Notes under the pieces: model-generated
The model's input: the letters and a program-made list of their open reading frames with translations, nothing else
Database searches by the model: none
Told to the model about the DNA's origin: nothing
Part shown: positions 12,828-33,836 of the stretch, piece after piece
Numbering within the stretch: the stretch's first letter is position 1
How the letters are laid out: the number at the start of each line of letters is the position of its first letter
Assembly: GCA_035549295.1 (NCBI GenBank)
Contig: DASZRG010000039.1
Location: forward strand, 31 to 64,030
Source of the DNA: Patescibacteria group bacterium
GTDB taxonomy: Bacteria > Patescibacteriota > Microgenomatia > Levybacterales > GWA1-39-11
Direction: 5' to 3'
Length of the DNA stretch: 64,000 nt
Program-made: the position numbers and the translations under genes

Positions 12828-15800
12828 CTATTTCTTCTCTGTCGTAGGAGTTACCACTGGAGTTTCTGTGGACGCCATTGTTGGCGTCGCCGCGGGTGTC
12901 GGGGCTTGGGCCTGTCCTGATATTGTCGGGGTCGGTATTGAAGTCGGAGCTAAGGTCGGAGTTGGCGTAATTTTTTGTGTTGGAGTTGGAGTTGAAGTCG
13001 GTGACTGTGTCGGTGTATTAACCACGCTTTGAGACATCGCTGGTGCTTGGGAAGGAATTGGCGTCGCAACAGGTGTTGTTGCGGGAAGCAACAAGCCTTG
13101 ATCAGAACACCACGTAATTTTTCCAGCAGAAATTGTTATATCATTCTGCCAAGAAGCTGTTTGCCCCTCTGTGTTAGAGTTTTTTATTGACGCCCCAGTT
13201 GTCGTACTTCCAGTACCACAATCTGTTTGCTTCCATCCCCCTGTCAGACCATTTTCATAAACAAGTATCCCATAATTACCTGCAGGAATTTGGTCAAAGA
13301 AAACCCACCCATCATCTGTACCGACAGTTTTTGAGGTAGCTGTCTGAATAACAGTATTTCCTGTAGTGTCTGTTAGTTTTGCCGTTGCACCATTTACATA
13401 TTTACCATCTGGCGAACCATTGCTCCCAATTTCTCGGACTCTAAAATGGATTCCACCTGCTGCTTGTGTATTTGGATTTTTGAGACCTACATCAGAACAC
13501 CACAAGATGTCGCCGCCAGGAATATGCAAATTTGATTGCCAAGCTGCTGTTTGATTTTCAGTGTTGTCGTTTTGTATGGTAACTGAATTCGTAGTGCCAC
13601 TATTGTTGCAGTCTGTTTGTCGCCAATATCCTGTGTACCCTTTTAAGTAAGTTGCGGCTCCATAGTATCCAGCCTGCACATTATCAAAGAATACCCAGCC
13701 ATCCTCACCATTCACTGTTTTTGAAGTTGTTGTTTGAAGCACGGTGTTTCCAGTTGTATCAGTCAGCTTCGCCGTTGCACCATTTATATATTTCCCAGTC
13801 CAATTTCCCGAACTATCAAATTCCTTTACTCGATAGTGAACTCCCCCATTACCGTGGAATCCAAGGTCGTAGCAATAATTTGTAACTCCTGCAACAATAA
13901 CTACACTATTATTCCATGCAGCCTTATTGTTCTCAGTTTGTGAATTTTGAATAGAGGCATTTGGGTCTGATGCTCCTGCACAGCTTGTCATTTTCCAAAA
14001 TCCTTCAAATCCCGCCTTGTACGCCATAAGGCCATAATTTCCAGCTGGAATATTTTGGAAAAAGGCCCATCCATCTTGACCATTGGATGCTTGAGTTGTT
14101 GTGCTTTGGATGACAGTAGAGCCTGTTGGATCGGTGAGCTTAACCGTCGCACCGTTCACATGATCTGTTGCAAGATACGATTTTGGAACATTTGGATCAT
14201 TCTCTATTAGATCTACTCTCATCGCCAAATTTCCAGATGTAACCGTTTGCAACCCCTCATCAGAACACCACGTTATTTGATTTGGCATAACTTTCAAATT
14301 ATTCTGCCAAGCAGCCGTGAAATTGTTCGTATTTTGATTTTTAATATTTGCGCTTTGCGTAGTGCCTGCGCCGTCACAAGTTGTTTGTTTCCAAGCGCCT
14401 ATCGAATTCCCTTTGTAAGTAAGTGCTCCATATTGGCCGGATGGTACATTGTCAAAAAATACCCAACCATCTTGCCCATTTACTGTTTTTGAGGTTGTTG
14501 TTTGAAATGCAACAGTACCGGTAGTATCAGTCAAAACCGCCGTAGCATCGTTAACAAACTTTCCAGTTGGATTACCATTTTTGTCTATATCCCGAACTCT
14601 AAAATGTATGCTTCCATTGCCAGTTGGCGTTTCGGTGAAACTAACAAGATATGCAGAGCTTGTCGCAGGAGTTGTGAAGTTATGAGACTGAGCGAGTTTG
14701 TCAGACCACGCGTTAAAGTTATAGTTAAAACCGTTCAGCGTTTGAAGGTTTGGAGTATCAAGACCGTGTATAAAACCTACAACACTTTCTACATTATACG
14801 GAGTGCTATGCGGGATACCATCTAGCATAAAAGTAAGACCGCTTACCGGGTAGCTATCAAACGTAAGATTAACCGTGTTCGGAGAAATAATCCTACTTGT
14901 GGTTGCTGATAGACCTGACGAGTCAACTACAGTTAGTATTATTTCATAACTTGTCTCGGCTGATGGCTCGCCAGTATTCGGAATTACAAAAGTTCCATTT
15001 TTAACTCCCTGTATTTGGTCTATGAATGGATGAATATGTGTTTGATGATGAAAAATAACACTCCAGGTGAAATCACTTGCTGGTAGGTCTCCGTCTTGCG
15101 CGTCGTTTGCTTCTCCGGAAAACGATATTGTATCTCCAGCGTTATAATGTGTCCCGTCAATCGGTGTGTCTATCTTTGGCACAGGAAGAGTCTTGCCGAC
15201 TGTTATTTTAGTGCTAGCGTTTGTCTTGCCTTTTGCATTACTAACCGTGAGTACAACTGTATATGTTCCATTGTTTTGATAAGTATGGGTAGGATTGGCT
15301 GATGTTAACTTTGAACCATCTCCAAAATCCCAGGAATAGGTAAGATTTCCACCTAGAGGATCGCTTGATCCTGCACTCGAAAAGGTTACTTTCAAAGGAG
15401 CAAGTCCGGCAATAGGATTTGCCGTAATTGCCGCAACGGGGGGAAGATTTGTTGCATTGTAAGTAATTTTGTACATTGATCCGGTATTTGAGCTAAAAGT
15501 CGAGTCAGCAACAGTTACGAAATACATGTTGCCATCTGGCCCATTCATCAAATCAACAACCTCACCAGCAGCATCATCAAAAGCATTGTCAGAAATAAAA
15601 TCTCCCTCAGAGTCAATTTTTAGGTATCTTATAAACCCCTTTGCGTAATCTCCATAAAAATAAACGCCTTGCATACTAGATCCAAGACTAGTCGACGAGT
15701 TAACATATCCACCGACAACTGCTGCCGATCCACCGTTATGCTGATAAGTAAAGAGAGGATCTATATATTTTCCGTTCGGAGGCGTACACGGACCCTCACA

Positions 15801-16556
15801 ATCAGGCCATCCGTAGTCTCCGCCTTTTTGAATTATATTAACCTCCTCAGTCGTCGCCTCACCGACGTCTCCAACAATTGGTCTACCATCAGGCAAAAAG
15901 TTAAATCTAAAAGGATTTCGAAATCCATATGCCCAAATACTTGCCTGTCCACCAGCAAGGCCGTAGAATGGATTGTCAGTTGGTATAGACCCATCAGAGT
16001 TAATCCTCAAAAGCTTTCCCTGTATATTTGATAAATCTTGTGAATTGGCGTTATTCGCGTTATTTCCAACTGATACCCAAAGCTTTCCATCCGGACCAAA
16101 GCGAAGTGTCCCTGATATATGATAAGTATTTAGTGTCTGAGTCGACTTTAGAAGAATCTTCTCGCTTCCAGCATTTATCGTATCCCCTGTTACAGTAAAC
16201 CTTGAAACTCTAAATTCATTAGGGGAAGCATTTACATATGCGAGGTAGACATAGTTGTTTGACGCAAACGATGGATCAAAAGCTATACCAAGCAGCCCAT
16301 GTTCTCCATTAGCATCAACGGGAAGTGTTATAGCCGGTGTTGCAGCAAGCGTTCCATTTTTATATATTTTGACCTCACCTGTCTTTTGAAGAATAAATAT
16401 CCGCCCATCAGGCGACTGACCCAATGCGTCTGGAAAGTTAAGACCTGAGACTACAGTGCTTTTTTGAAAACCTGTAGGTAATGCCGCCTGTACCTTTGGT
16501 ACAAAAAGCAATGACAAAAAAACTAAATATACTAGTACAAATAACTTCTTGAACAT
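12828..16556 (-). CDS. secreted 1242-aa multidomain surface protein: signal peptide, glucose/sorbosone-dehydrogenase-like beta-propeller, PKD domain, four ~128-aa Cys-containing CnaB-like (SpaA/carboxypeptidase-regulatory-type) repeats, and a Pro/Thr/Ser-rich C-terminal tail
   Basis: The signal peptide is MFKKLFVLVYLVFLSLLFVPKVQA. GLNFPDALGQSPDGRIFILQKTGEVKIY is the SGDH-type propeller start. LTYSWDFGDGS...HTYQNNGTYTVVLTVSNAKG is a PKD signature. Four repeats match the pattern HFRVRDID.NGNPTGKFVNDATA.LTDTTG..V.QTTTSKTVNGQDGWVFFDNVP.G.YG......W.QT.C......WCSD.GL. The tail is ...TPTQSPTSTPTPTQKITPTPTLAPTSIPTPT... Confidence 0.7.
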   Translation of the reverse strand: MFKKLFVLVYLVFLSLLFVPKVQAALPTGFQKSTVVSGLNFPDALGQSPDGRIFILQKTGEVKIYKNGTLAATPAITLPVDANGEHGLLGIAFDPSFASNNYVYLAYVNASPNEFRVSRFTVTGDTINAGSEKILLKSTQTLNTYHISGTLRFGPDGKLWVSVGNNANNANSQDLSNIQGKLLRINSDGSIPTDNPFYGLAGGQASIWAYGFRNPFRFNFLPDGRPIVGDVGEATTEEVNIIQKGGDYGWPDCEGPCTPPNGKYIDPLFTYQHNGGSAAVVGGYVNSSTSLGSSMQGVYFYGDYAKGFIRYLKIDSEGDFISDNAFDDAAGEVVDLMNGPDGNMYFVTVADSTFSSNTGSMYKITYNATNLPPVAAITANPIAGLAPLKVTFSSAGSSDPLGGNLTYSWDFGDGSKLTSANPTHTYQNNGTYTVVLTVSNAKGKTNASTKITVGKTLPVPKIDTPIDGTHYNAGDTISFSGEANDAQDGDLPASDFTWSVIFHHQTHIHPFIDQIQGVKNGTFVIPNTGEPSAETSYEIILTVVDSSGLSATTSRIISPNTVNLTFDSYPVSGLTFMLDGIPHSTPYNVESVVGFIHGLDTPNLQTLNGFNYNFNAWSDKLAQSHNFTTPATSSAYLVSFTETPTGNGSIHFRVRDIDKNGNPTGKFVNDATAVLTDTTGTVAFQTTTSKTVNGQDGWVFFDNVPSGQYGALTYKGNSIGAWKQTTCDGAGTTQSANIKNQNTNNFTAAWQNNLKVMPNQITWCSDEGLQTVTSGNLAMRVDLIENDPNVPKSYLATDHVNGATVKLTDPTGSTVIQSTTTQASNGQDGWAFFQNIPAGNYGLMAYKAGFEGFWKMTSCAGASDPNASIQNSQTENNKAAWNNSVVIVAGVTNYCYDLGFHGNGGVHYRVKEFDSSGNWTGKYINGATAKLTDTTGNTVLQTTTSKTVNGEDGWVFFDNVQAGYYGAATYLKGYTGYWRQTDCNNSGTTNSVTIQNDNTENQTAAWQSNLHIPGGDILWCSDVGLKNPNTQAAGGIHFRVREIGSNGSPDGKYVNGATAKLTDTTGNTVIQTATSKTVGTDDGWVFFDQIPAGNYGILVYENGLTGGWKQTDCGTGSTTTGASIKNSNTEGQTASWQNDITISAGKITWCSDQGLLLPATTPVATPIPSQAPAMSQSVVNTPTQSPTSTPTPTQKITPTPTLAPTSIPTPTISGQAQAPTPAATPTMASTETPVVTPTTEKK

Positions 16557-16646
16557 GAAACCACATTATATTATAGGTTTATACATTTTACAACAATCCG
16601 ATGTATACTCAGCTAAAATTAAGGTATATGGTAGAACTATAGGGGA

Positions 16647-17222
16647 TTAAATACTGACTGGCTTTCCAACTGCAACAAACCTCTGCGTATCAAGAAATCC
16701 CGTACAAGTGTATATAGTAATTCTTGCATCCCCTGTCGAGTCCAGAATACTGGTATTACTAGGTGCAACAACCGTCGTATAGACAATTTTAAATGTCTTT
16801 TTAGCACCATTCGTATAGGTAATATCGACCAAATCGCCAGGCTTAACGCCCGTAAGCGGTCCTAAAAGACTTGTCCAATTATGACCGTAAAGCACACTAT
16901 TTCCAAGCATTCCTGGAATAGGTGAGCTAATAAGATATGATACGCCACTTGTTGTTGCCTGCCATGAATTGTTCTGTATTTGAGCAGGATATATCGGAAG
17001 ATTGATTTTGACTTTCTTTATGACTATCTGGCGTGGAAGCGTACCTGTCGATACGCTAGGCGTCTCCAAAACATTTTCAAAAGACAGATTTTGGGGACTA
17101 TATCGCTGAACCATCAAAAAACTGCCGAATGCAATAAGTAGGATTCCTATAAATAATGAGGTTTTCGCGAAAAAGCGCATAAGTGCTCCTTTACTTGTTT
17201 TCGCGGGATTTAAGAAGACCAA
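16647..17222 (-). CDS. sortase (class E-like transpeptidase)
   Basis: N-terminal TM anchor. The active-site His is in VLYGHN, the Cys is in the TLxTC motif (ITIYTCTG), and the Arg is in RFVAVGKP. It overlaps the upstream LAXTG substrate gene by 32 nt. Confidence 0.8.
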   Translation of the reverse strand: MVFLNPAKTSKGALMRFFAKTSLFIGILLIAFGSFLMVQRYSPQNLSFENVLETPSVSTGTLPRQIVIKKVKINLPIYPAQIQNNSWQATTSGVSYLISSPIPGMLGNSVLYGHNWTSLLGPLTGVKPGDLVDITYTNGAKKTFKIVYTTVVAPSNTSILDSTGDARITIYTCTGFLDTQRFVAVGKPVSI

Positions 17223-17823
17223 TTACTACAAAGAGTATACCCGCTCCAAAAATAGAAGCTATGAACTGCAGATTACCTGTGTTAGCAAGTCCAAATGCAG
17301 ACGCACCTAGAACCGCGTTGTCTGATCGGCCATCTGAGCGACCGTCTGAACGACCATCAGAAAGGCCATCTCCTGGACCGCCAGGGTTGCCGCCCCCTAC
17401 TTGTGGGTCTCCACATGTAAAATTGGCATTTTGGGCCAAATATGGCTCAGGTTCAAGACCCCATGCAGATCCATCTGGAACATATATCCAACCTTGACTT
17501 GTCATGACCTGAATTTGAGCAGGATCCATATTGCCGACTTTTTGCCAGTTTGTCTGAATACCTGCTCCATTGTCTGCACAGAAACATTGCATTAGATTGC
17601 CATCTGAGAGTGTATAAACAGTATCTTTTCCTGTGTGAGTCGCAGAATCTCCTACGATACCGTGAGTACCCGAATCGAAATTCTCTTTTACAGTTCCTTG
17701 AGGATTAACACAATTAGGGAAGTCAGCGTTCGTCGCAGCTGAGGCATGGCTTACTGCGCTTATCAATAAAGCTATATTTAGAAGTCCAATTTTTATACCG
17801 TTTTTAATATTCATATTAGGCAC
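17191..17823 (-). CDS. LAXTG-type sortase-anchored surface protein
   Basis: N-terminal signal peptide, a Cys-containing domain, a Gly/Pro-rich linker with (SDGR)x3, then the sorting signal LANTG, a hydrophobic segment NLQFIASIFGAGILFVVIGLL and a positive tail KSRENK. Confidence 0.7.
   Translation of the reverse strand: MPNMNIKNGIKIGLLNIALLISAVSHASAATNADFPNCVNPQGTVKENFDSGTHGIVGDSATHTGKDTVYTLSDGNLMQCFCADNGAGIQTNWQKVGNMDPAQIQVMTSQGWIYVPDGSAWGLEPEPYLAQNANFTCGDPQVGGGNPGGPGDGLSDGRSDGRSDGRSDNAVLGASAFGLANTGNLQFIASIFGAGILFVVIGLLKSRENK
17321..17368. repeat. in-frame 12-bp tandem repeat x4 (tctga-cg-cc-) encoding the (SDGR)n linker of the LAXTG protein
   Basis: Units are tctgatcggcca / tctgagcgaccg / tctgaacgacca / tcagaaaggcca. 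Confidence 0.6.
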
Positions 17824-17899
17824 AAAAATGTGTAAGAGTAGTATTATAATATATTATTATAGGTTTGTCAATAGGCATGCCGATACCTAGACTTTAGGT

Positions 17900-19150
17900 T
17901 TATTTTATGCCTAAGAAGAATTTACGGAGCTTAAATATAATATCCTCTTTTTCGCGTTTAAGGGTGATCGTCTGCTTACCGGATGGTTTGACTGAAATAG
18001 TCGTTCCGAAGTAGTTATCAGCCTCAACACGTGCACTCTCAGAGACTCCCACTATAGGTACTGTAAACATACCATTTTTATCAGTAAAGTATGTTTTATC
18101 GCCAATTATTATATATGCATTTGAAATACCATCTCCTAACTCATCAGAAATAACGCCACTCGCATTCTCAGGATTATAGGCTGTTTTGATAACTTCGGAA
18201 ACAGATCTTGCAGTTCCATTATCATTCCAGATAGATGTCGTACTGCCAATATTTGTCCAGTAGTTAACTCCAATAAGCTCTGGAGTACTTATTAGCTTTG
18301 AAAAAGCATCTGCGACCCACTGTTTTTGCTGTTCATCAGTCATATCTCCATTTATGTCCGGTATTGGTGCACCAAATTCACCCAAAACTATGCTCCCACC
18401 TGATTCTGCAGAAATGGCCTTTATATCTGACGTTAACTTTTCGGGAGTCGAAACGTAATGGTCAATAGTTACTACTCCATCCATTGCGGCTGTTGTCGCA
18501 TGATCCATAACAGCTCGAGCAACATCCCCGTTCATCGAGTCATAATTTGAAGCCACATTTTTGCCTATTGAGTGAAACGCTGACTTCGTAACCTTATATT
18601 CATCGATCATAAACTGTCGAAAACCATCAATGTCTCCTGTTTGTCTTGGGTCACCCGGTCCTCCATTCTCACACTCAGGACATGCAGTAAATATGTCTCC
18701 ATTTTCAAAAATGTCAGGGTGTTTGAGTATGAAGCTTTTCGTCATACTCATATGCTGTTCTCGAGTAATTTTGCTGTAGTTAAACCACCCTTCCCACCCC
18801 GAAAAATTACCTCTAAACCAAACATTTAAGTGGTATTTTCGCGCAGCAGCAACCCAATGCTCGAGCATGGGATAAAACTCCTCGTCATATGGCGTCGCAA
18901 TCGCGACATGTGTCGCGCCTAGATCTGCAATATTTTTAACCTGAGCATCAATTGTCGCCATAAAAGCTGGGTCGTTTAGCTTTTCGCGCGAAAGGTCACG
19001 AGAAAACTTCATCGTATCAATCGACTGGAATCTCCACCAACGCGTCACTGGACTGGAGGAAGCCCTATGACTCGTAAATAGTACAATTAAAAATATGATT
19101 GGAACGATAATAAGTAATTTACTTTTCATTTTTCTGAGTGTTTTCTTCAT
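17900..19150 (-). CDS. secreted putative glycoside hydrolase (clan GH-A-like TIM barrel) with a C-terminal beta-sandwich domain
   Basis: N-terminal TM/signal region. A candidate acid/base Glu lies in PECENGGPG and a candidate nucleophile in VLGEFGAP (xxExG), as in GH5/GH113-type enzymes. The C-terminal YIIIGDKTYFTDKNGMFTVP is carboxypeptidase-regulatory-like. The family assignment is tentative. Confidence 0.4.
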   Translation of the reverse strand: MKKTLRKMKSKLLIIVPIIFLIVLFTSHRASSSPVTRWWRFQSIDTMKFSRDLSREKLNDPAFMATIDAQVKNIADLGATHVAIATPYDEEFYPMLEHWVAAARKYHLNVWFRGNFSGWEGWFNYSKITREQHMSMTKSFILKHPDIFENGDIFTACPECENGGPGDPRQTGDIDGFRQFMIDEYKVTKSAFHSIGKNVASNYDSMNGDVARAVMDHATTAAMDGVVTIDHYVSTPEKLTSDIKAISAESGGSIVLGEFGAPIPDINGDMTDEQQKQWVADAFSKLISTPELIGVNYWTNIGSTTSIWNDNGTARSVSEVIKTAYNPENASGVISDELGDGISNAYIIIGDKTYFTDKNGMFTVPIVGVSESARVEADNYFGTTISVKPSGKQTITLKREKEDIIFKLRKFFLGIK

Positions 19151-19167
19151 ACTCTATAAATTAGTTT

Positions 19168-19230
19168 TTAGCGTTTAGCGTTTGGCACTTATTTAAAGCT
19201 ACCAACCCCCAAGAGCTAACAGCTAACTCC
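19168..19230. repeat. dispersed ~70-bp intergenic element with inverted ends (TTAGCGTTTAGC ... ACCAACCCCCAAG ... GCTAACAGCTAA), copy A
   Basis: ttagcgtttagcgtttggcacttatttaaagctaccaacccccaagagctaacagctaa. Confidence 0.55.
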
Positions 19231-19231
19231 A

Positions 19232-25019: not shown

Positions 25020-25628
25020 CTAAATTGATGCAGATAAATTAGAAATTCTGTTGAAAAATATCATTCTCTGCCTCACGTATTGCCTAACAGACGAACCATT
25101 GAGTTTCTTTTTCATTTCCACATACTCCCTAAGCAACTTATTATTTGACTTTATTAGCTGATCTTGCTTTATCGTACTTGAAAAGCTTCTCAGGGATGGA
25201 TCAGCAAGCAAAACTTCTACTTTTATGTTATTTCGCATGAATTTCCACTCAACAAATCGTTTTCTTTCTTTTGTCGGTTCTCCAAACAGCTTACTAAGCT
25301 TAGGTGTATACTTTTCAAACTTTTGCGGTGGGCAAGCGATCAAGAGGTCCACATCATTAAGGCCAAGTATTTTATAACTGGCTGAGCCAACAAAATACAC
25401 TTTTAGAGTTGGTGTTATGTGCTTAATTTTAGCTATAATCTTCTGACCCGTTGTTGATAAATCTTTTCTGAAAGGCTTCATTACAACACGTCGCTTATTC
25501 GAATACGTATATAGATATAAATAATCTTTTGGAGATTCACATAAAAGTTTAAGATCAACCGCCACGTACTTAGCCAAGCTATTGAATCGTCTAATTATTT
25601 TTGAAGTAAAGCCTGCGATATTTTTCAT
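25020..25628 (-). CDS. nucleotidyltransferase-fold protein (GrpB / aminoglycoside-lincosamide NTase-like)
   Basis: YFVGSASYKILGLNDVDLLIACP fits the pol-beta-type GS-x9-DxD pattern. The start is taken at the internal Met (25628) to avoid a 50-nt overlap. Confidence 0.4.
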   Translation of the reverse strand: MKNIAGFTSKIIRRFNSLAKYVAVDLKLLCESPKDYLYLYTYSNKRRVVMKPFRKDLSTTGQKIIAKIKHITPTLKVYFVGSASYKILGLNDVDLLIACPPQKFEKYTPKLSKLFGEPTKERKRFVEWKFMRNNIKVEVLLADPSLRSFSSTIKQDQLIKSNNKLLREYVEMKKKLNGSSVRQYVRQRMIFFNRISNLSASI

Positions 25629-25632: not shown

Positions 25633-27633
25633 TTAAATCTCCACGATAACTTTCGTGCTCGTTGCAATCTCCCACATTCCATATGAATTTAAGCTGTCTG
25701 TGTATGGAGTGATTTTTAATATTAGGTTTAGCGCTACTGCCAAAGGTACATAGACTGGGTTTTTGAAAAGTGTTTTAAAAAGTCCTCGTAGCTTGTACAC
25801 CATTGAGATGTCGTGCAACTTCTCTACATCTTCACCAAAATATTCAACAAGTACGTCGCGTTCATTAAGAAACCTCTTGCCTTGCAATACAACTTCGCGC
25901 ACGTTTTCCGGTGTTTTAAAGAGAATTGAAACATTTTTAAGGAATCTAAATCCATTTTTCTCTTTCGCTTTTACATATAGATATTCTTCATCGCAGGTAA
26001 TATCTGAAGGATAAATGAAAGATTTTGAAAACTTTTTTCTTAGCATGCTCGCTCCTCCATAAAGGTTTGCGATATGATCCCCGCCGTTTATATCTTCCCT
26101 TGTATTATTCCAGAGCAAATTGTTCGCATAGATTATGCGACCCATCACGCTTTTTGCCTTAGCGGGAATAAAATTGCCTGCTGCAACTTGTGCTTTTTTA
26201 TCTTTTAAAAACACTTCAACCATTTTACCGAGTGTTTCCTCGTCCCTTAAATAAACATCGGCGTCAAAAGTTGCGAGCAAATCACTTTTGTTTATTTTGT
26301 AGATTTCATTTAAGCGGTGCGGCTTCCCACGCCTTACTATTCCCCCCATTACTTTTATTCGCTTATCACTTTTTGCGAGTTTCTTTGCAACCGACAAGGT
26401 TTTATCACTCGACCCGTCAATATTTATATAAATTCTTTCAAGTCTGAAATTTGAATTTTTCTGCTTTTTAATTGAAGCGATTAATTTCGACAAGTTACCC
26501 TCTTCGTTATATGCTGGAATGCCAACGCTTACAGAAACTGTATTTGACTTTATCGTATCTAAAATAACGTTTACTATCTTTCTGATTGTTTCCATGTTTA
26601 TGTCGTGAAACATAGGAAGACAGAGGATCCTCTTTGCAACTGATTCAGAAACAGGACAAGCTACATACTCAACATAAGGCATAGTGTTAAGTGATGGATA
26701 GAAATACCTTCTTGGAAATATGTTTTCTGCTTCAAGAGCTTTCTTAACAAGAAGAAGCTCTTCTTCACTTTTAAAAACAACTGGGAAATATGAGTAATTG
26801 TAAATAACGCTATTCAAATACTTAATTTCGTGAAGACCACTGTCCTTAAGAAGCCTTTTATACTCGTCGTACGCACGATTTCTAACCTCACGTATGGCAG
26901 GTACATATTTTAGGTTAGCAAGACCCATTGCAGCGTGCATTTCAGAGTTTTTAGCATTAATACCAAGTTCTGTTGGAAAACCTTCACGAGAAAGCCCAAA
27001 ATCACGCATTCTACGCACTTTCTTGGCGACTTTGTCGTTATCTGTTATTACAAATCCTCCCTCAACTGTGTGGAACAATTTTGTTGCATGAAGACTCAGC
27101 GTTGAAACATCACCGTATTTAAATATTGATCTGCCGTTAATTTTTACCCCAAACGCATGTGCCGCATCGTATATAACCTTGAGATTGTGCTTTTTAGCTA
27201 TTTTTTCAATTTTTTCAACGTTACAGGGATATCCAAACACGTGCACCGCAAGAATAGCTGTTGTTTCAGGCGTTATAGCAGCTTCAATCTTTTCCTCATC
27301 AATTGTAAGATCGTCTTCTTTGATGTCGACAAAAACAGGCTTACAATTCTCCCATACAATTGATGTAGTAGTCGCAGCAAATGTAAAAGGTGTAGTTATG
27401 ATTTCTCCACGAAGATCAAGCGCGCGTATTGCAAGTTGTATTGCAACTGTACCGTTTGTAACAAAAAAAGCATGTTTAACTTTTAGGAGCTTTTTGATGT
27501 TATTTTCAAGCTCCTGCGCGAGCACTCCGTGATTTGTAATCCAGCGAGATTCCCATGCACGCTTTAAAATCTTTTCGTACTCCTCAAAAGGTGGAAGAAA
27601 GGTCCTTGTAACTAATACTTTTTTACTTTGCAT
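25633..27633 (-). CDS. fusion: DegT/DnrJ/EryC1/StrS-family PLP-dependent sugar aminotransferase (N-terminal) + family 2 glycosyltransferase (C-terminal)
   Basis: The N-terminal segment carries FFVTNGTVAIQLAIRAL...AILAVHVFGYPCN...DAAHAFG (DegT). The C-terminal segment carries VSVSVGIPAYNEEGNLSKLIASI...YINIDGSSDKT...ATFDADV (GT2). Confidence 0.65.
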   Translation of the reverse strand: MQSKKVLVTRTFLPPFEEYEKILKRAWESRWITNHGVLAQELENNIKKLLKVKHAFFVTNGTVAIQLAIRALDLRGEIITTPFTFAATTTSIVWENCKPVFVDIKEDDLTIDEEKIEAAITPETTAILAVHVFGYPCNVEKIEKIAKKHNLKVIYDAAHAFGVKINGRSIFKYGDVSTLSLHATKLFHTVEGGFVITDNDKVAKKVRRMRDFGLSREGFPTELGINAKNSEMHAAMGLANLKYVPAIREVRNRAYDEYKRLLKDSGLHEIKYLNSVIYNYSYFPVVFKSEEELLLVKKALEAENIFPRRYFYPSLNTMPYVEYVACPVSESVAKRILCLPMFHDINMETIRKIVNVILDTIKSNTVSVSVGIPAYNEEGNLSKLIASIKKQKNSNFRLERIYINIDGSSDKTLSVAKKLAKSDKRIKVMGGIVRRGKPHRLNEIYKINKSDLLATFDADVYLRDEETLGKMVEVFLKDKKAQVAAGNFIPAKAKSVMGRIIYANNLLWNNTREDINGGDHIANLYGGASMLRKKFSKSFIYPSDITCDEEYLYVKAKEKNGFRFLKNVSILFKTPENVREVVLQGKRFLNERDVLVEYFGEDVEKLHDISMVYKLRGLFKTLFKNPVYVPLAVALNLILKITPYTDSLNSYGMWEIATSTKVIVEI

Positions 27634-28750
27634 AAGAAGCCTCCTTTTTTAGAACCATGTAGAAAAATTCTTCAAATTCGCTTGCAACGCGTGACCATGT
27701 GAACTTTGCAGCGTATCGACGAGCTTCTTTTCCGAGCTTGCCGTTTTGGTTTTTTTTGACTGCATCAAGCAACAGGCTTGCATACTCGTTTACATTGAAA
27801 GCTTTAGCCTTTGATGCAACATTGTCGCCTGTCCAAGAAATTCCTGGTATATCAAACGCAACGAGTGGAAGCTGTGAAGCCAAAGCTTCTAGTGCAAAAC
27901 ATGAAAATGTTTCATTTCTTGAAGGAAAAGCAACAAAAAGTGATTCTGACAAATATGCGGCTTTTTTGTCACCATAAGTTGGACCGACCATCGAAACTTT
28001 ATTTTCGAGTTTCAATTTCTTAATAAGTTCGGCAACCTTCTTCTCATCGGGACCATTTCCTGCTATAACAAGCGGATATTTAACTTTGTTTGCTATTTTT
28101 GCATAAGCATGGAGAAGCAGATCGATTCCTTTTTGATCCATATCAAGTCTGCCGAGAAAAAGAATATGCTTTGAGCGCTTTTTCTTTATTTTGAAGAATT
28201 CTTCACCGACACCTTCTGGTATAACTGTTGAGATAACTTTTGGGTTGGAAACCTTCATTTTCTTTTCAAAAAATATAGTCAACGCTACAAAATATTTGTA
28301 AAAACGAAGCCCAAAACGCTCGACTAGATAAAATGGAAGGTGGTACATTTTTGAAAAACGATCCGCTTCAAAAGACGTTGAAAGACCAACGACAGGAATA
28401 TTTGTAAACAAAGGCGAAAGAAGCGTTGAAACAGGAGCCGTAAAGCACTCGAGAATAACATCTACATTTTTGAGGCTTGTTACGGCAAGCGGTGCAGCAG
28501 CAAGATATGCGAAATTATTTACCTTAATGTTGCCCGTGCCAATACCGATATGCTTGTAATAAATTCCATTCTCAAATCTATCCTTATACCCTGGGTACTT
28601 TGAGCAAAGGACTGTGACTTTGTGTCCTTTCTCAACCAGACGACCACCAACCTCATAAGTTGCCCTTGCTTGGCCACCGTTAAGTATTGGATTTTTAACA
28701 TCATCAAGATCCAAAAACACAATATGCAGTCTTTTATTTATTTTCTTCAT
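27623..28750 (-). CDS. family 4 (GT1-clan) glycosyltransferase
   Basis: N-terminal LHIVFLDLDDVKNPILNGGQARATYEVGGRLVEKGHKVTVL. The C-terminal E-x7-E-like region is FPSRNETFSCFALEALASQLPLVAFDIPG. Confidence 0.7.
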   Translation of the reverse strand: MKKINKRLHIVFLDLDDVKNPILNGGQARATYEVGGRLVEKGHKVTVLCSKYPGYKDRFENGIYYKHIGIGTGNIKVNNFAYLAAAPLAVTSLKNVDVILECFTAPVSTLLSPLFTNIPVVGLSTSFEADRFSKMYHLPFYLVERFGLRFYKYFVALTIFFEKKMKVSNPKVISTVIPEGVGEEFFKIKKKRSKHILFLGRLDMDQKGIDLLLHAYAKIANKVKYPLVIAGNGPDEKKVAELIKKLKLENKVSMVGPTYGDKKAAYLSESLFVAFPSRNETFSCFALEALASQLPLVAFDIPGISWTGDNVASKAKAFNVNEYASLLLDAVKKNQNGKLGKEARRYAAKFTWSRVASEFEEFFYMVLKKEASYAK

Positions 28751-28751
28751 A

Positions 28752-31241
28752 TTAAAAAAGTGAGATTATTCGAGAGAATGCAGTTGTTGCTTTCGCAAAT
28801 GAAAATCTTGATTTTCTGGCCTCAACTTCCTCATAAGCGGTTAGGTAGAAGCTGTTTGCGCTATTTTTCCAGTTAAATTGCTTCGCCCACTCAAAGGCAT
28901 TCTTAGAAGTGGTATTTCTAAAAGATTTGTTTGTCAAAATTTTGTTAAGAGCTGCTGCAAATTCATTAACGTCCCCTACGCGCGCAAGAAGTCCAGTTCG
29001 AGTGTCAATTATCGAATCCCTCAACCCATTTGTGTCAGATGCAACGACAGGAGTCTTACACGCATTTGCCTCGATAACAGTTATTCCCCATCCCTCAACC
29101 TGTGAAGGCTGCACAGCAACCCATGCTTTTGACATAAGCTCGATTTTCTTAGAATTTGTGACTTTACCAAAGAACTTTACTTTTTTGGTAAGACTTTGCT
29201 CTACAACTATATCCCTTAGAATATCTCCCATATCACCTTCGCCTACGATCCAAAATTCAGCATTTTTAAGACGTTTTAGAATTTTTTTGAACGCATGGAT
29301 TGCAACATCGATATTTTTGTATGCCTTGAGTCTGCCAACATACACAACAGATGGGTATGTTGTTTTTTTGTATTTCCTGGAAGGAAGATCAATTCCTGGG
29401 TTGATTATTTGAATATTTGCCTCATTTGCAATTCCATTTTTTACTATTTCCTCTTTTGTCGAGGAAGAAACCGTAATCACTGTTCGGTTGCGATAGACGA
29501 ATGGCATTATTTTGCCCTCGATAAATCTTCCGATATATGAAAGGGGGAACTTCATTTGCGAAATAAACACGTCTTGGTGCACGTGATGGATCAGAAGAAG
29601 CACTGGTTTTGTTGAAAAAAGCGGTGTAAAAAATGGTATTCCATTCTCAGAGTCAACAACTACATCAAAATTTTTTCTAAATTTAAATATGTAGTAAAGC
29701 GCGGCCCAAATATATACCGTGTAAAATCCACCACGTCTTATCACTTTAACTCCATCGACAGTTTGGTTGCGTGCGCTCTTGCGATCATTCCCACAAAATA
29801 AAGTGACCGAATTACCCTCTTTCACCCACTGTTTTGCAAGTTCATGCACATATACTTCTGCGCCCCCTGCCCACATGTGCTTTGTGTCGCGCCAATTAAA
29901 TATCAGAATTCTAAGTCCGCGAGTATTTTTTTGGTTTTTCCATGGCAAAAACGCCTCAAAAAAGTCGTAAAGGTTGATTGCAACTGTTTCATATGTTGAT
30001 TCAAACATATATAAAAGTCCCAAAACAACAAGGTTTACAAAACCCATGACAATCATAACGTTTGCAATAGCAGCCATTGAATTGTGGTAAAGATTTATTC
30101 CAAGAATCTGAACAAGCGCTAGAAGAAAGCTTACAATTGGAAGTAAATGCTTACCTTTGATCTGCTGGAAAGCTACGATATTCGTTGCAATTGTAAAGGC
30201 AACCATAGATAGTGCGTATCCCGAGATTAGTGGCACAATAGGAAGCGCCTTACTTCCAAAAACAAGCGGCATTGTGATAAAACCAAGAGCTCCGAAGAGA
30301 ACATAGGCAGCGAAGCTTGAAACAAATGATGCAGCAAGAAGTTGATAGAAGACTTTTCTCGAGCTTCCACCCGCACCCTCTTTGTGGCTGACTATAGGTA
30401 AAATAAACTGGGCAAATAAATATCCAGCAAAGAAAACCATCTTACCTGAGAGAGATAAAAGTGCATAAAGTCCTGCTTGCTCTTGAGACAAAAAGTGCTT
30501 TGCAAGAACAACGTCAATCGAAAGATAAACAACTGTTGAAATTCGAGTCAAGGCTGAGGACAAATAAAAACCTGCTGGAAATTTTTCTTTTGCTTTAGTT
30601 TTAGCTTTCTCTGGAACTACTTTTACCCTCTGCGCGGCTATTGTAATCAATGAAAATGAAACAAATGTAGAGAAAACTACGGCTGCATATACATACTTCT
30701 CAAAGCCTAAAATAACCAAAACAAATGAAGCAACAAATTTTACAACAGACTCAATTACAGCGATTGTCGCCAAATAGTTAAACTCCAAATTTCCTGTTAG
30801 ATATCCTCCATCAACTGAAGCAACTATCGTGAAGAACCAGATTGGCGTAAATGCCAAGATAGGAAGTACACTTCCAATATTAAAAAAGTTAGCAATTTGT
30901 GAAGCAATAGCGAGCCATGCAACAGTTATAACTACTGCTAAAAGTATTGACCTGCCTCTAAGGTACTTCCAAAACCGCGTCGCAGGCTGCTTATACTTTC
31001 CAAATAAATATGCACTTTTATAAGTAACTGTTTTACCAAGGGCTCCTATTGGAATATCTGACAAGCTCAGGATACTTCCAAACAACGAAATTAAGGCGAA
31101 GTTCTCGATACTTATACTTCTTCCAAGATATGCGTTGTAAAGAAGGTTAAAAAAGTTTGAAAACACAGCTGCGCCGACAAGGTACGCACCTCTCTTTTGT
31201 GTTTTATCAGCATTTAAGATTTTTTTTGCGAATGATTTCAT
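28752..31241 (-). CDS. fusion: polysaccharide-biosynthesis/Wzx-like multi-TM flippase domain (N-terminal) + GT4 glycosyltransferase (C-terminal)
   Basis: About 12-14 TM helices in the first ~480 aa. The C-terminal segment carries RILIFNWRDTKHMWAGGAEVYVHELAKQWVKEGNSVTLF and EGWGITVIEANACKTPVVASD (GT4). The start is taken at ATG 31241 (MKSFAKK), 1 nt after the upstream stop. Confidence 0.6.
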   Translation of the reverse strand: MKSFAKKILNADKTQKRGAYLVGAAVFSNFFNLLYNAYLGRSISIENFALISLFGSILSLSDIPIGALGKTVTYKSAYLFGKYKQPATRFWKYLRGRSILLAVVITVAWLAIASQIANFFNIGSVLPILAFTPIWFFTIVASVDGGYLTGNLEFNYLATIAVIESVVKFVASFVLVILGFEKYVYAAVVFSTFVSFSLITIAAQRVKVVPEKAKTKAKEKFPAGFYLSSALTRISTVVYLSIDVVLAKHFLSQEQAGLYALLSLSGKMVFFAGYLFAQFILPIVSHKEGAGGSSRKVFYQLLAASFVSSFAAYVLFGALGFITMPLVFGSKALPIVPLISGYALSMVAFTIATNIVAFQQIKGKHLLPIVSFLLALVQILGINLYHNSMAAIANVMIVMGFVNLVVLGLLYMFESTYETVAINLYDFFEAFLPWKNQKNTRGLRILIFNWRDTKHMWAGGAEVYVHELAKQWVKEGNSVTLFCGNDRKSARNQTVDGVKVIRRGGFYTVYIWAALYYIFKFRKNFDVVVDSENGIPFFTPLFSTKPVLLLIHHVHQDVFISQMKFPLSYIGRFIEGKIMPFVYRNRTVITVSSSTKEEIVKNGIANEANIQIINPGIDLPSRKYKKTTYPSVVYVGRLKAYKNIDVAIHAFKKILKRLKNAEFWIVGEGDMGDILRDIVVEQSLTKKVKFFGKVTNSKKIELMSKAWVAVQPSQVEGWGITVIEANACKTPVVASDTNGLRDSIIDTRTGLLARVGDVNEFAAALNKILTNKSFRNTTSKNAFEWAKQFNWKNSANSFYLTAYEEVEARKSRFSFAKATTAFSRIISLF

Positions 31242-31242: not shown

Positions 31243-33603
31243 TTAGATAAGAACGGACATAGCGAATTTAAGCGGCTTTTCAAAAGTTCTCCATCCAAAA
31301 TTACCAACGACATAAACAGCACGCACAGGTGCAGCTGCAACGCTTCTAACACTAATGCTTGGAAGTGCAGGAATATCAATCCAACCAAAAGTTTTTCTAG
31401 GTTGTTCGTCGACCTTCTTCTCAGGTTTCGCAGCAACTACCTGAGGCTTGGTCTTGAGAAGATGCAATCCGTGAACAGTCTTCTCCCAGTAATGAGGTTT
31501 GAAAAGAAGCTGGTACAATGCAATAAACGCTGAAATACTTATCATGATCCAGTAAATCGGGATCAAGTAAACATATTTCATGAGACTCCACTGACCCTTT
31601 TTTGCAACTCCGATCATGTAGTAATACAAGAACATGAAATTACCAAACACGAGTGAAAATACAGCCATATAGAAAACTGCGCTTGGGTAAAGAGCTTCAA
31701 TTTGTGGCCCTACGTAAGCATAGAGCGCAAAATATGCAATTGTTGCAAGCCATAAGAATGGATTTATCAAGACGAATGCAATTTTTCCACCGATAAGAAG
31801 CTGGAACATCAGTGAATGCTTCTGGGTCATTCTTGATTCGGATGGTCTCGTGTGAACGAGATATGTCTGCATGTAACCCTTGATCCATCTAGACCTTTGT
31901 CGCAACCAGTTACCAAAGCGGCTATTTGCTTCCTCAAGTGTTACAGAATCAATAATCGCAGTTTTAAAACCCTTCTTAAAAAGCCTTACACCAAGATCGG
32001 CGTCTTCAGTAACATTGAACGGATCCCATCCTTCAACGGCGCGAAGACTTTCTATCTTAAAGTGATTTGACGTACCACCAAGAGGAATAGTCGTATCGAC
32101 CGACTGTAATCCAGTAAGTGTTACATCAAACCAAAGCGAATATTCGGCTGTAAAGAATCGAGTTAGTAAATTTTGGTTAGGGTTGTAATAATTAAGTTTT
32201 GCCTGAAGACAAATAGTCTCGGCTGATACTTTCGAAAAGGCAACATATGCTTTTTTAAGCTGAAGTGGGTCAGGCATATCCTCAGCATCATAAATAACCA
32301 AATATTCACCCTTTGCATGCGATAGACCATAATTACAAGCCTTTGGTTTTGTTTTTGGTGCGGAATCAGGAACTATAAGAGTTCTTACGTATGATGGTAA
32401 GCTCATTTTTTTAACTGCCTCAATTGACTCTTGGTCGTCTGCTTCAAGAAGCAAGATCACGTCTAGTTTTTTCTTAGGCCATGAAATCTTTTCTATGGCG
32501 CTCATAAACTGAGGTATAACGTGAGCCTCTTTATATAGCGGACATAAAATCGTGTAGATCGGTAGATCACGATCATTAAGTCTTGCAATCTCGCTTTTTG
32601 TCGATGTAATCTCCTGTGGGTGTGCCAAACTTTTACCGATAAGGTACATGTTGAAAAGTACGTCGGCAAAATAAATCGAAGACAAGGTTGCAACTACGAT
32701 CTGTAAAGTTAGCTTTGTATTAATGTAAAGCCCAAGTAAAACGTCAAGAATTATAAGTCCTGAGATGATCTTTTGAGCAAGTGTAAACGTCGTAAGAGCT
32801 GATGCATCATGCTTTATCGTTGTGTGCGTTGTGTACTTTCTTTGTTTGTATCCAATACCCGCACCAACCATAGCCTGTCCAGTAGGCGCAAAATGAATAG
32901 GTTCTATTTTTTTCGCACGAACTCTTATTGCATTTATTCCTATCTCAAGAGTCTGTTTAACAAAGTTCATCTTTGACTCGCCATTTACACGAGGAGCAAA
33001 AGTAATATTCTGGTTGACTATCTTGAATCCCGCCTCTTTTGCACGGTGAAGAAATTCAAGATCAAAAGTCCAAGGAGACGTTGGGTCAAACTTGACAGAA
33101 TCAACAACTTCTTTTTTGAAAAGCTTCAAACCTGACTGGATATCATGTTTTAAGTTAAATAGAGTGCTTCCGAAGACAAATCGAAACACACGGCTAAAAA
33201 CTCTTCTCGAAACGGAATCTTGGTAATTCTTCCTGTTTGTGACAACAATATCTGCAGTATTTAACTTTTCAATCATTTCAGGCAACGCCTCAGGCGGATA
33301 TTGCAAGTCAGCATCAATCATCGCAACGCTTTCGTATTTCGCGTGACGCATACCCTCATAAATTGAATATGACTTACCTTTTTTACCCTGCTTGAGAAAA
33401 TATGAGACAGGATAAAACATCGCCATAGCAGAAATAGCTGAAAGCGTACTGTCTGTTGAATGATCATCAATGAAGATGATTTCGTATTTTATATTTCTTT
33501 TTGACAAAGTTTTGTGAACGCGCTTTATAAGATTCTCAACGCTTCCTTCTTCGTTGTATGTTGGAACGATAATTGAAACTGATTTTTTAAGTGTTTTACC
33601 CAT
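31243..33603 (-). CDS. dual glycosyltransferase: N-terminal GT2 (DPM1-like) + membrane-embedded processive GT2 (cellulose/chitin-synthase-like, QxxRW)
   Basis: The N-terminal segment carries VSIIVPTYNEEGSVENLI...IFIDDHSTDST...IDADLQY. The C-terminal segment carries TEDADLGVRLFKKGFK and the processive-synthase motif QRSRWIKG, with several TM helices. Confidence 0.65.
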   Translation of the reverse strand: MGKTLKKSVSIIVPTYNEEGSVENLIKRVHKTLSKRNIKYEIIFIDDHSTDSTLSAISAMAMFYPVSYFLKQGKKGKSYSIYEGMRHAKYESVAMIDADLQYPPEALPEMIEKLNTADIVVTNRKNYQDSVSRRVFSRVFRFVFGSTLFNLKHDIQSGLKLFKKEVVDSVKFDPTSPWTFDLEFLHRAKEAGFKIVNQNITFAPRVNGESKMNFVKQTLEIGINAIRVRAKKIEPIHFAPTGQAMVGAGIGYKQRKYTTHTTIKHDASALTTFTLAQKIISGLIILDVLLGLYINTKLTLQIVVATLSSIYFADVLFNMYLIGKSLAHPQEITSTKSEIARLNDRDLPIYTILCPLYKEAHVIPQFMSAIEKISWPKKKLDVILLLEADDQESIEAVKKMSLPSYVRTLIVPDSAPKTKPKACNYGLSHAKGEYLVIYDAEDMPDPLQLKKAYVAFSKVSAETICLQAKLNYYNPNQNLLTRFFTAEYSLWFDVTLTGLQSVDTTIPLGGTSNHFKIESLRAVEGWDPFNVTEDADLGVRLFKKGFKTAIIDSVTLEEANSRFGNWLRQRSRWIKGYMQTYLVHTRPSESRMTQKHSLMFQLLIGGKIAFVLINPFLWLATIAYFALYAYVGPQIEALYPSAVFYMAVFSLVFGNFMFLYYYMIGVAKKGQWSLMKYVYLIPIYWIMISISAFIALYQLLFKPHYWEKTVHGLHLLKTKPQVVAAKPEKKVDEQPRKTFGWIDIPALPSISVRSVAAAPVRAVYVVGNFGWRTFEKPLKFAMSVLI

Positions 33604-33605
33604 AG

Positions 33606-33836
33606 TTATTTATTTTTTTTGTTTTTTACAATATGGAATTCGATGAATTTAGAAAGAGAGGATTTTCCGATACGGTAGTGACCGCCAAATTCAATGGCTT
33701 CAAGTTTTTGAGCTCTGATATACTTATATATAGTGAGCTCGGATAGCTTCAAGAGATTCGAGACGTCCTTAACAGTAAGGAAGTCGTTTTCGTTATAATA
33801 TCTCATAGTTTTGGCAAGAATTGTCATATATACCAC
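33606..33836 (-). CDS. excisionase/Xis-family helix-turn-helix DNA-binding protein
   Basis: 76 aa. LTVKDVSNLLKLSELTIYKYIRAQKLEAIEFGGHYRI is a MerR-like HTH_17/excisionase-type domain. It is the first gene of the long minus-strand operon. Confidence 0.55.
   Translation of the reverse strand: MVYMTILAKTMRYYNENDFLTVKDVSNLLKLSELTIYKYIRAQKLEAIEFGGHYRIGKSSLSKFIEFHIVKNKKNK

Follow-up and report, generated by a model that had tools for sequence, protein, structure and literature searches.

A putative cell-envelope glycopolymer locus with fixed ends and a variable tailoring centre in Microgenomates-type bacteria

Introduction

Several described systems offer points of comparison for the gene cluster reported here, which lies in a 64,000-nucleotide stretch of DNA (the window) from a Patescibacteria group bacterium (contig DASZRG010000039.1). 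Synthase-dependent exopolysaccharide systems (BcsA/BcsZ; Psl with PslG; and PgaC/PgaB of poly-N-acetylglucosamine, PNAG) pair a synthase with a partner glycosidase. In the GtrB/GtrA/GtrC, CsbB/GtcA/YfhO (lipoteichoic acid, LTA), GacI/GacL and Ppm1/Pmt systems, a family 2 glycosyltransferase (GT2) for polyprenyl-phosphate sugars is combined with a GT-C enzyme. The Arn pathway (ArnB, ArnA, ArnC, ArnD, ArnE/F, ArnT) runs from a DegT aminotransferase through a GT2 and a cytoplasmic deacylase to a GT-C enzyme, and its ArnD is an enzyme of the carbohydrate esterase family 4 (CE4) type. The GspA/LcpA/SrtA system of Actinomyces oris produces a glycosylated, sortase-anchored wall protein (PMC6381275). 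O-antigen and capsule loci, finally, enclose a highly variable centre of tailoring and glycosyltransferase genes between fixed end modules.

Within the candidate phyla radiation (CPR), the Microgenomates form a large and uncultured group, and little is known of their envelope chemistry. Here we describe, between positions 33836 and 12828 of the window, a region that we take with moderate confidence, on the strength of sequence comparisons, to represent in this genome a cell-envelope glycopolymer locus that is conserved among Microgenomates-type CPR, with fixed ends and a variable tailoring centre.

Results

Gene order in the window and in related loci

The region consists of 14 co-directional open reading frames (ORFs) on the minus strand that span 33836 to 12828 and are concordant with the NCBI gene calls on the matching contig CAZMXU010000021.1 (GCA_964570355.1, a Patescibacteria metagenome-assembled genome). 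Measured from the most plausible starts and in gene order, the junctions are +2, +1, +1, -11, +4, +6, +1, +2, -14, +81, +85, +10 and +90 nt, in agreement with the original prediction, made from the sequence of the window, of 14 co-directional ORFs with gaps of at most ~90 nt and a few short overlaps. Its assignments of an HTH_17/excisionase-type protein, a GT2 with a QxxRW synthase, two family 4 glycosyltransferase (GT4) domains, a DegT-GT2 fusion, a further GT2, an APH-kinase-CE4 fusion and a sortase were likewise backed by hidden Markov models (HMMs). For four proteins (two polytopic membrane proteins, a 416-aa protein and a protein with a LANTG signal) no Pfam or NCBIfam family reached its curated cut-off.

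We compared the window with 11 related CPR loci (among them L003 to L009, L088, L089 and L091) and with 72 distinct metagenome loci. The metagenome scan was anchored on the gene of a clan GH-A glycosidase, its neighbours were scored with HMMs built from our own alignments, and only loci with sufficient flank were counted. Because the same gene order repeats in these related and metagenome loci, the arrangement exceeds what chance would give. A fixed 5' frame is formed by a GT2-GT2 protein and a transmembrane (TM)-GT4 protein, often as one fused product of 1200-1570 aa, and a fixed 3' frame by two membrane proteins that we call GTC1 and GTC2, the GH-A protein, a small protein of ~200 aa and a sortase. 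The frame was found at both ends in L003, L007, L008, L009 and (rearranged) L006; in L088, L089 and L091 its 5' end was found, at the edge of the locus. In the metagenome loci, GTC2 stood immediately upstream of GH-A in 41 of 44 and GTC1 upstream of it in 32 of 36, with the small protein downstream of GH-A in 32 of 46 and the sortase downstream in 27 of 40.

The locus was present in nearly every relative examined, and the taxon-labelled relatives were Microgenomates-type CPR (Levy-, Davies-, Curtiss- and Gottesmanbacteria). The original prediction had proposed a comparison of synteny across Saccharibacteria and other CPR genomes; the co-localisation proved to be conserved, in relatives whose taxon labels are of Microgenomates-type CPR and not of Saccharibacteria. 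One contig (CAYUPO010000002.1; L008), titled 'uncultured Gammaproteobacteria bacterium', has a Microgenomates-type locus that is complete, with proteins 39-60% identical to those of the window, and its bin is probably mislabelled or contaminated. No description of the locus was found in the literature searched, in keeping with the earlier statement that the gene order belongs to no named system.

The 5' frame

The first enzyme of the frame is a bifunctional membrane GT2 of 786 aa (31243..33603, minus strand), recognised from Pfam and PDB matches, TM segments and motifs. Its N-terminal part (residues 1-230, followed by TM helices at 276-294 and 298-316) is a domain of the polyprenyl-phosphate-sugar synthase type, and residues 7-216 were closest in the PDB to the archaeal DPMS 5mlz (1e-23), ArnC (1e-18) and GtrB (3e-16), with every NCBIfam equivalog score for this domain under its cut-off. 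These matches identify a DPMS/GtrB/ArnC-type domain, for which transfer to polyprenyl phosphate is predicted. The second domain (about residues 348-631) matched BcsA (4e-10), PF13641 and PF13632, is followed by four to five TM segments, and has DAED, TED and QRSRW motifs within residues 430-575; TM segments at 276-316 and 598-696 flank its GT-A domain. It has the features of a processive membrane GT2 synthase of the BcsA/NodC/HAS/PgaC type and is predicted to be one. A Pfam scan of the protein gave no PilZ match. Homologues in related loci are 53-64% identical and often fused to the next gene.

That next gene (28752..31241, minus strand) encodes a polytopic membrane domain of ~12 predicted TM segments (residues 1-430) fused to a GT4 domain with Pfam matches at residues 524-850, and it is 43-46% identical over its full length in L003, L008, L009 and L088. 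The original prediction had read this protein as a Wzx-like flippase fused to a GT4. The GT4 half was borne out by Pfam, and the flippase found no support as the identity of the membrane domain and is no more than a guess: with four orthologous domains there was no Pfam match to the Polysacc_synt, MurJ or MatE models at E up to 1, a PDB profile search and BLASTP gave no match, and an hhalign comparison with a genuine Polysacc_synt protein from L007 returned a probability of 0.4%. A cytoplasmic GT4 glycosyltransferase, assigned by Pfam, follows at 27623..28750 (minus strand). Its top NCBIfam matches, BshA and MshA, were far under cut-off; its homologues are 55-62% identical in six related loci, 44% in L006 and 34% in L088, and none was detected in L009 or L089.

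GT-C enzymes and the GH-A glycosidase

The fold of GTC2 (19232..20863, minus strand) and that of the 416-aa GH-A protein (17900..19150, minus strand) were assigned from predicted structures, which alone resolved the two; PDB sequence-profile searches with GTC1, GTC2 and GH-A gave no useful match. In its model GTC2 has a GT-C membrane fold with a C-terminal extracytoplasmic domain. The best fold matches were PMT and STT3, with ALG12, ArnT and AftB scoring nearly as high and PimE, AftA, AftB and AftD also among the matches. Across eight orthologues there was no Pfam match, the PMT and STT3 models included, and neither GTC1 nor GTC2 belongs by sequence to a curated GT-C family (PMT, PMT_2, STT3, ArnT, YfhO and others). 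GTC2 is the most conserved protein of the locus, with 60-76% identity across candidate phyla, and has invariant residues just past TM1 (N57-D58, D64 and E71) in a loop with a predicted local distance difference test score (pLDDT) below 50.

GTC1 (20850..22334, minus strand) is a fast-evolving polytopic membrane protein, 29-34% identical in most related loci and 58% in L004. It is probably a GT-C glycosyltransferase as well, judging from NCBIfam (LA_3751/LA_3752 putative glycosyltransferase, 2.5e-13, under cut-off), a PMT_2 match in one of nine orthologues (1.5e-5), an hhalign alignment with GTC2 (E 1e-4, probability 57%) and synteny. The two GT-C enzymes of the original prediction have thus fared differently: the predicted fold upholds GTC2, and these weak NCBIfam, PMT_2 and hhalign matches make GTC1 no better than probable.

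The model of the 416-aa protein (pLDDT 89.3) is a clan GH-A (beta/alpha)8 barrel with a C-terminal CarboxypepD_reg-like beta-sandwich and an N-terminal membrane anchor or signal peptide, which would place it outside the cytoplasm. Its fold matches included glycoside hydrolases of families GH5_18 (21.9), GH113 (21.1) and GH164 (20.9), many GH5 mannanases and cellulases, and PslG (18.8). Invariant glutamates stand at the ends of the strands where this clan has them (E159/E161 after strand 4, and E258, in LGEFG, at the end of strand 7), and a glycosidase is predicted, as had been proposed from the sequence. No glycoside hydrolase family in Pfam reached cut-off in seven orthologues, the best being Glyco_hydro_cc (0.038). 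The GTC2 family numbers at least 2340 proteins and the GH-A family at least 2479, nearly all annotated as hypothetical; those members that have a taxon name belong to Levy-, Davies-, Gottesman-, Roizman- and Chisholmbacteria.

A lipoglycan or lipoteichoic-acid-like glycolipid would also call for an enzyme set of this kind, with two GT4 and two GT-C enzymes next to a polyprenyl-phosphate-sugar GT2 and without a priming phosphoglycosyl transferase, by analogy with corynebacterial lipomannan and lipoarabinomannan (LM/LAM; PimA/B, MptA/B, Ppm1). A GT4 would then prime a membrane lipid inside the cell, and after flipping the GT-C enzymes would extend it outside from polyprenyl-phosphate sugars, the sortase pair being a mere frequent neighbour. 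Weak GT4 matches to the glycolipid-anchor synthases IagA/BgsA, Mgs and Dgs, the presence of PimE, AftA, AftB and AftD among the GT-C fold matches, and the absence of the small protein and sortase from ~30% of loci speak for such a product. However, the GT4 matches are non-specific and far under cut-offs, a glycolipid would account neither for the BcsA-like synthase domain, which is conserved, nor for the GH-A hydrolase, and the small protein and sortase still follow GH-A in ~70% of loci. We regard a lipoglycan as improbable and continue to favour a synthase-made glycopolymer.

The small four-cysteine LAxTG protein and its sortase

The gene after GH-A (17191..17814, minus strand) encodes a small secreted protein whose layout, seen in the sequence and in a family alignment, is a signal peptide, a ~110-aa domain with four cysteines, a Gly/Ser/Thr/Asn-rich stalk, a sorting signal, a hydrophobic stretch and a basic tail. 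In the window the stalk is rich in Gly, Ser and Asp and the C-terminus reads LANTG, 19 hydrophobic residues and KSRENK, which agrees with the LAXTG wall anchor originally proposed. The family alignment has four invariant cysteines and GIQTNW, QGW, WGL and YLAxN motifs, and L-A-x-T is invariant in nine orthologues. With its signal peptide and sorting signal the protein is a predicted sortase substrate, and it is the only credible one within the 64-kb window. The family comprises 355 clusters at 50% identity; a sorting signal was found in 119 of 150 representatives (86 LAxTG, 16 FAxTG and 8 LPxTG), and the stalk between the cysteine domain and LAxTG is, family-wide, 18% Gly, 16% Ser and 10.5% Thr.

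The sortase (16647..17180, minus strand; PF04203, 1.5e-17, 64 bits against a cut-off of 26.6) begins 10 nt past the LAxTG gene with AGGAG in front, and the His, Cys and Arg of its YGHN, YTC and R motifs are invariant in eight orthologues. All NCBIfam class models missed it, the best being class C (36 bits against 160), with class E at 16 against 160; class E sortases are the ones usually linked with LAxTG.

Several related loci depart from this layout. In L005 (11336-12538) and in the Daviesbacterium locus L088 (13277-14421) there are two sortase genes, convergent and tandem, respectively. The small protein of L008 has LAATS in place of LAxTG, and its gene lies upstream on the opposite strand. 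In the Levyibacteriota locus L009 (17429-20195) a second GTC1 paralogue lies past GH-A, and the four-cysteine domain is fused to a segment that by eye appears fibronectin-III-like and to a polytopic C-terminal membrane region, without a sorting signal; no sortase was found within the flank of this locus. In L004 (10268-10900) the protein before the sortase is unrelated to the four-cysteine family, is Asn-rich and Pro/Thr-rich (TPTATPTPTYTPTVTPT...) and keeps MASTG, a TM segment and a basic tail, so that by its sequence a different, mucin-like putative substrate has taken over this position.

The nature of the stalk raises a second alternative, that of dedicated protein O-glycosylation, in which the GT-C enzymes would glycosylate the stalk of the small protein during export and the sortase would fix the resulting proteoglycan to peptidoglycan, so that the small protein would carry the glycan of the locus. 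The composition of the stalk, the Pro/Thr-rich substitute in L004 with its MASTG signal, PMT and STT3 as best fold matches of GTC2, the tight order GT-C, GT-C, GH-A, small protein, sortase, and the precedent of GspA as a glycosylated sortase substrate (PMC6381275) are all consistent with it. Set against these are the 14 of 46 loci in which GTC1-GTC2-GH-A is kept without a downstream small protein, the nearly equal fold scores of the lipid and glycan GT-C transferases ALG12, ArnT and AftB, and the unmatched Pfam models of PMT and STT3; moreover, simple protein glycosylation needs neither a BcsA-like synthase nor a GH-A enzyme. We think it rather unlikely that this is the function of the locus, and similarly unlikely that, as a bolder form of the idea would have it, the chief wall glycoconjugate of Microgenomates is a sortase-anchored proteoglycan with the small protein as its core, filling the role that teichoic acids or arabinogalactan have in other monoderm bacteria, with GTC2 attaching an invariant core to the stalk and the cassette described below setting a strain 'serotype'. 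If true, that 'serotype' would be relevant to host or phage recognition. In the glycopolymer locus that we prefer, the small protein may either bind or carry the glycan.

Promoter-like sites and transcription units

The original prediction had treated all 14 genes as one operon and pointed to ~33.85-34.1 kb for a promoter. A promoter-like site for the glycan genes is present in the sequence (33827..33855, minus strand), with TTGACA, a 17-nt spacer, TATATA (A at position 6 of the -10 hexamer) and a TG extension, and internal candidates are present as well. A consensus scan placed one of these at 17843..17871 (minus strand): its TTGACA, 17-nt spacer and TATAAT make it the only 12/12 match to the sigma-70 consensus in the 64 kb on both strands (shuffle mean 0.07), and it lies in the 85-nt gap before the small-protein gene. 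The same gap has an 11-12/12 match in L004-L007 and weaker matches in L088 and L089. A further site (TTGTAA, 17 nt, TATAAT; 10/12) was found by the scan before the gene of a 1242-aa protein (16565..16593, minus strand). Intrinsic terminators in the cluster equalled the count expected by chance, and none was in an intergenic gap. Because promoter-like sites precede the genes of the small helix-turn-helix (HTH) protein described below, the small LAxTG protein and the 1242-aa protein, three units are likely: the glycan genes (33.8-17.9 kb), the small protein with the sortase, and the 1242-aa gene. From its putatively very strong promoter the small protein is predicted to be made in large amounts.

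In L005 (10591-10701), L006 (7651-7763) and L007 (14840-14931), a GC-containing hairpin followed by a T-run lies between the promoter and the start of the small protein (for example GAAGCT-GTTT-AGCTTC-TTTTTTATT); from its sequence it looks like a leader element that would terminate or attenuate transcription, or like a stem-loop that would stabilise the 5' end. The promoter-to-start gap of the window has no clear equivalent.

The secreted 1242-aa protein (12828..16556, minus strand) has by Pfam a GSDH-type propeller, a PKD domain, four repeats of ~125 aa (one with a weak SpaA match) and a Pro/Thr-rich tail. Its domain content is as first described, and the tail could be O-glycosylated; together with the co-directional tight packing and the lack of a convincing intrinsic terminator, this would suit a single surface glycoprotein system encoded by one 14-gene operon, in which the glycan is displayed on a 1242-aa adhesin and the LAxTG protein. 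That system does not agree with the conserved consensus promoter of the LAxTG gene, with the 10/12 site of the 1242-aa gene or with the absence of a sorting signal from the 1242-aa protein. Nor does it agree with the absence of homologues of this protein from the 11 related loci and from 80 metagenome loci (0/80 by tblastn); in related loci that reach beyond the sortase, unrelated genes occupy the position. Since no homologue was found in either set, we exclude the 1242-aa protein from the locus and regard it, on sequence grounds, as an unrelated neighbour with a putative promoter of its own. Synteny largely refutes the one-operon proposal, which we hold to be very improbable, and leaves the conserved glycopolymer genes and the small protein-sortase pair.

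At the upstream end, a small HTH_17/excisionase-family DNA-binding protein (33606..33836, minus strand; PF12728, 3.7e-11; TIGR01764, 1.5e-11) is a candidate regulator of the locus. A homologue of 68 aa with 57% identity is found at the same position in L007, and tblastn found none in any other related locus. Its listed GTG start at 33836 and first ATG at 33827 overlap the -10 element of the promoter-like site, and ATG 33806 would give 66 aa, close to the length of the L007 homologue; for these reasons the true start is probably ATG 33806, and the ORF shorter than listed. The excisionase-type HTH had suggested a mobile element, an idea that we dropped because no integrase was found when the 14 ORFs, together with ten genes at 36.5-47.8 kb, were scanned with Pfam and NCBIfam, the G+C of the cluster (0.36-0.43) is inside the range of the remaining window, and the HTH homologue in L007 is at the same position.

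The variable tailoring cassette

Between the two frames the window, L004, L005 and L008 have a DegT-GT2, a GT2 and a kinase-CE4 protein. The first of these (25633..27633, minus strand) is a DegT-family sugar aminotransferase fused to a GT2 (PF01041, 3.7e-87, and PF00535), with the DegT part closest to DesI (TIGR04427, 4e-83; PDB 2po3, 4e-60). The two are fused in L004, L005, L007 and L008, probably also in a cut gene of L006, and are separate genes in L003. A small GrpB-like protein (25020..25628, minus strand) had been called a nucleotidyltransferase-fold protein; its GrpB match (1.5e-4) is under cut-off, leaving a GrpB-like protein with a weakly assigned, possible nucleotidyltransferase fold, and its sole homologue found in the related loci is in L008 (42% identity). 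The GT2 at 24120..25013 (minus strand; PF00535, 1e-19) has one C-terminal TM segment (residues 263-281) and is 41% identical in L004 and L005.

The cytoplasmic kinase-CE4 protein (22337..24118, minus strand) joins an APH protein-kinase-like domain (PF01636) to a CE4 deacetylase (PF01522), with neither a TM segment nor a signal peptide predicted. Its invariant residues are K70, E87, HxD219-221, N226 and D238 in the kinase and TFDDG and H477/H481 in the CE4 metal and base motifs, and its PDB matches were to CE4 enzymes and kinase catalytic loops. The fusion is rare: a set of 5.8 billion proteins contained only five full-length homologues, of which one is from Candidatus Curtissbacteria. Among the matches listed in a profile scan of GTDB genomes, most were stand-alone CE4 proteins of unrelated phyla, only L008 was full-length, and L009, which carries the rest of the locus, matched in the CE4 domain alone. 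The kinase-CE4 gene always follows the DegT and GT2 genes, fused or separate, with one extra GT2 gene between in five of seven loci. It directly follows the DegT-GT2 fusion in L007 and probably also the cut gene of L006. L003 has separate DegT, two GT2 genes and kinase-CE4 in its middle, with a GT4-FdtA fusion upstream. Other middles differ altogether: PIG-L and FemAB-like acetyltransferases (Acetyltransf_6) in the Daviesbacterium locus L088, methyltransferases, an epimerase and a dTDP-sugar isomerase in the Levybacterium locus L089, and CE4, methyltransferase and SDR in L091. No Formyl_trans or epimerase/dehydratase domain was found by Pfam in the 14 proteins of the window.

Repeat element and flanking genes

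A hairpin-forming repeat, found by repeat and folding analysis, lies between GTC2 and GH-A (19151..19231, about to 19240, minus strand). The 81-nt gap that it fills is atypical, as these genes abut in related loci (median -6 nt). A second copy at about 34030-34130 (minus strand) lies between typA and the HTH gene; the two copies have an exact 15-mer (CTTGGGGGTTGGTAG) in common and are 80% identical over ~100 alignment columns, with folding energies of -23.8 and -29.6 kcal/mol (z -2.2 and -1.8). The repeat may have arisen as a REP-like insertion, or may serve in the processing or stability of RNA.

Past the 3' end of the 14-ORF run lie a co-directional ArsR-type HTH gene (12360-12713) and YCII-like gene (11841-12179), both on the minus strand. 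Beyond typA there is a second envelope cluster (36544-46260) with a CE4 deacetylase, two Mur-ligase paralogues, a FemAB-family transferase, a second DegT aminotransferase, an alpha/beta hydrolase, a methyltransferase and a D-Ala-D-Ala carboxypeptidase, which suggests an unusual peptidoglycan stem or cross-bridge chemistry.

Discussion

Proposed assembly of the glycopolymer

Pfam scans of the 14 proteins detected no priming phosphoglycosyl transferase, Wzy, ABC exporter or LCP ligase, which disfavours routes of the Wzx/Wzy and ABC type. We propose a route through a synthase and polyprenyl-monophosphate sugars because a BcsA-like synthase with a glycosidase and a polyprenyl-phosphate-sugar GT2 with GT-C enzymes are all present. 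The original prediction had gone further and held that every enzyme class needed to build a surface glycan is encoded; this overstated the content of the cluster, as a sugar-activating nucleotidyltransferase and a dehydratase also went undetected.

From the domains, folds, conserved catalytic residues, topology, synteny and promoter placement described above, we infer which sugars and acceptor take part, how flipping fits in and what the small protein does, as follows. The DPMS/ArnC/GtrB-like domain of the 786-aa protein would load a sugar on polyprenyl phosphate, and its BcsA-like domain would polymerise and export a beta-linked backbone. The GT4 enzymes, one of them tethered to the 12-TM domain, may add sugars at the cytoplasmic face. 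By the logic of ArnB, ArnC and ArnD, the local cassette would make a second lipid-linked sugar: DegT would yield a 4-amino-4,6-dideoxyhexose, which the fused GT2 would attach to polyprenyl phosphate. In the cytoplasm, the kinase-CE4 protein would deacylate, and perhaps phosphorylate, the lipid-linked intermediate before flipping. After flipping, GTC1 and GTC2 would transfer the lipid-carried sugars to an acceptor at the outer face; the invariant step would be that of GTC2, supplied by the N-terminal GT2 domain, which is conserved. The anchored GH-A enzyme may trim or release the polymer, like BcsZ and PslG, and the small LAxTG protein, from its own putatively very strong promoter and wall-fixed by the adjacent sortase, may be a partner of the glycan at the wall that binds, anchors or carries it.

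A number of points weigh against this scheme. No flippase was identified in the cluster, which likewise has no N-acyltransferase to explain the substrate of the CE4 domain and no dehydratase or nucleotidyltransferase to supply DegT. The GT-C status of GTC1 depends on weak scores, and the promoter-like sites are putative, as matches to a consensus. The small protein and sortase are missing after GH-A in ~30% of the loci (14 of 46 without the small protein), and the link of this pair to the glycan genes is frequent and not obligatory. Finally, sequence by itself is as compatible with a protein or lipid acceptor as with a decorated backbone.

Significance

A published survey found the sortase family near ubiquitous in Microgenomates and 35 mostly hypothetical families enriched there (PMC6744442). 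That survey and the presence of the locus in nearly all of the relatives examined make it a good candidate for the principal surface glycan machinery of Microgenomates. Two hypothetical families of more than 2300 proteins each gain a predicted fold and a plausible role, as GT-C transferase and GH-A glycosidase. The layout of a fixed frame with a variable centre predicts strain-level surface diversity as in O-antigens, bearing on host attachment and phage susceptibility. The small LAxTG protein, with its strong predicted promoter and dedicated sortase, offers a target for antibodies, labelling and heterologous display.

Comparison with known systems

Like the Bcs, Psl and PNAG systems, the locus pairs a BcsA-like synthase with a partner glycosidase. 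Unlike them it has no PilZ or cyclic di-GMP module in Pfam scans, its synthase is fused to a polyprenyl-phosphate-sugar GT2, and it adds two GT-C enzymes and a sortase pair; its CE4 enzyme is cytoplasmic, whereas those of PgaB and IcaB are extracellular. With the Gtr-type systems it shares the polyprenyl-phosphate-sugar GT2 and the GT-C partner, but it has no recognised small flippase of the GtrA or ArnE/F type, and GTC1 and GTC2 lie outside the Pfam GT-C families. The order of enzyme types is that of the Arn pathway (DegT aminotransferase, GT2, cytoplasmic CE4-type deacylase, GT-C); however, there is no ArnA-like formyltransferase/decarboxylase, the CE4 domain is fused to a kinase-like domain, and the DegT protein is nearer to DesI than to ArnB (4e-83 against 6e-43). 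Lipid A is an unlikely acceptor in Microgenomates-type organisms.

As in the A. oris GspA system, a small wall-sorted protein is tied genetically to glycan synthesis and a sortase, although here Pfam found no LCP-family enzyme, the sortase misses the class E model, and the small protein is at most a candidate for glycosylation. The fixed end modules and highly variable tailoring and glycosyltransferase centre are those of O-antigen and capsule loci, but without Wzx/Wzy/Wzz, an ABC exporter or a priming phosphoglycosyl transferase by Pfam. Because defining components of each were tested and not found, the locus falls outside the Bcs, Pga, Arn, Gtr, PMT, Wzx/Wzy and GspA/LcpA systems. As judged from its sequence, it instead resembles a combination of synthase-dependent exopolysaccharide synthesis, GtrB/GT-C glycosylation and a dedicated sortase-substrate pair, arranged in the layout of a serotype locus.

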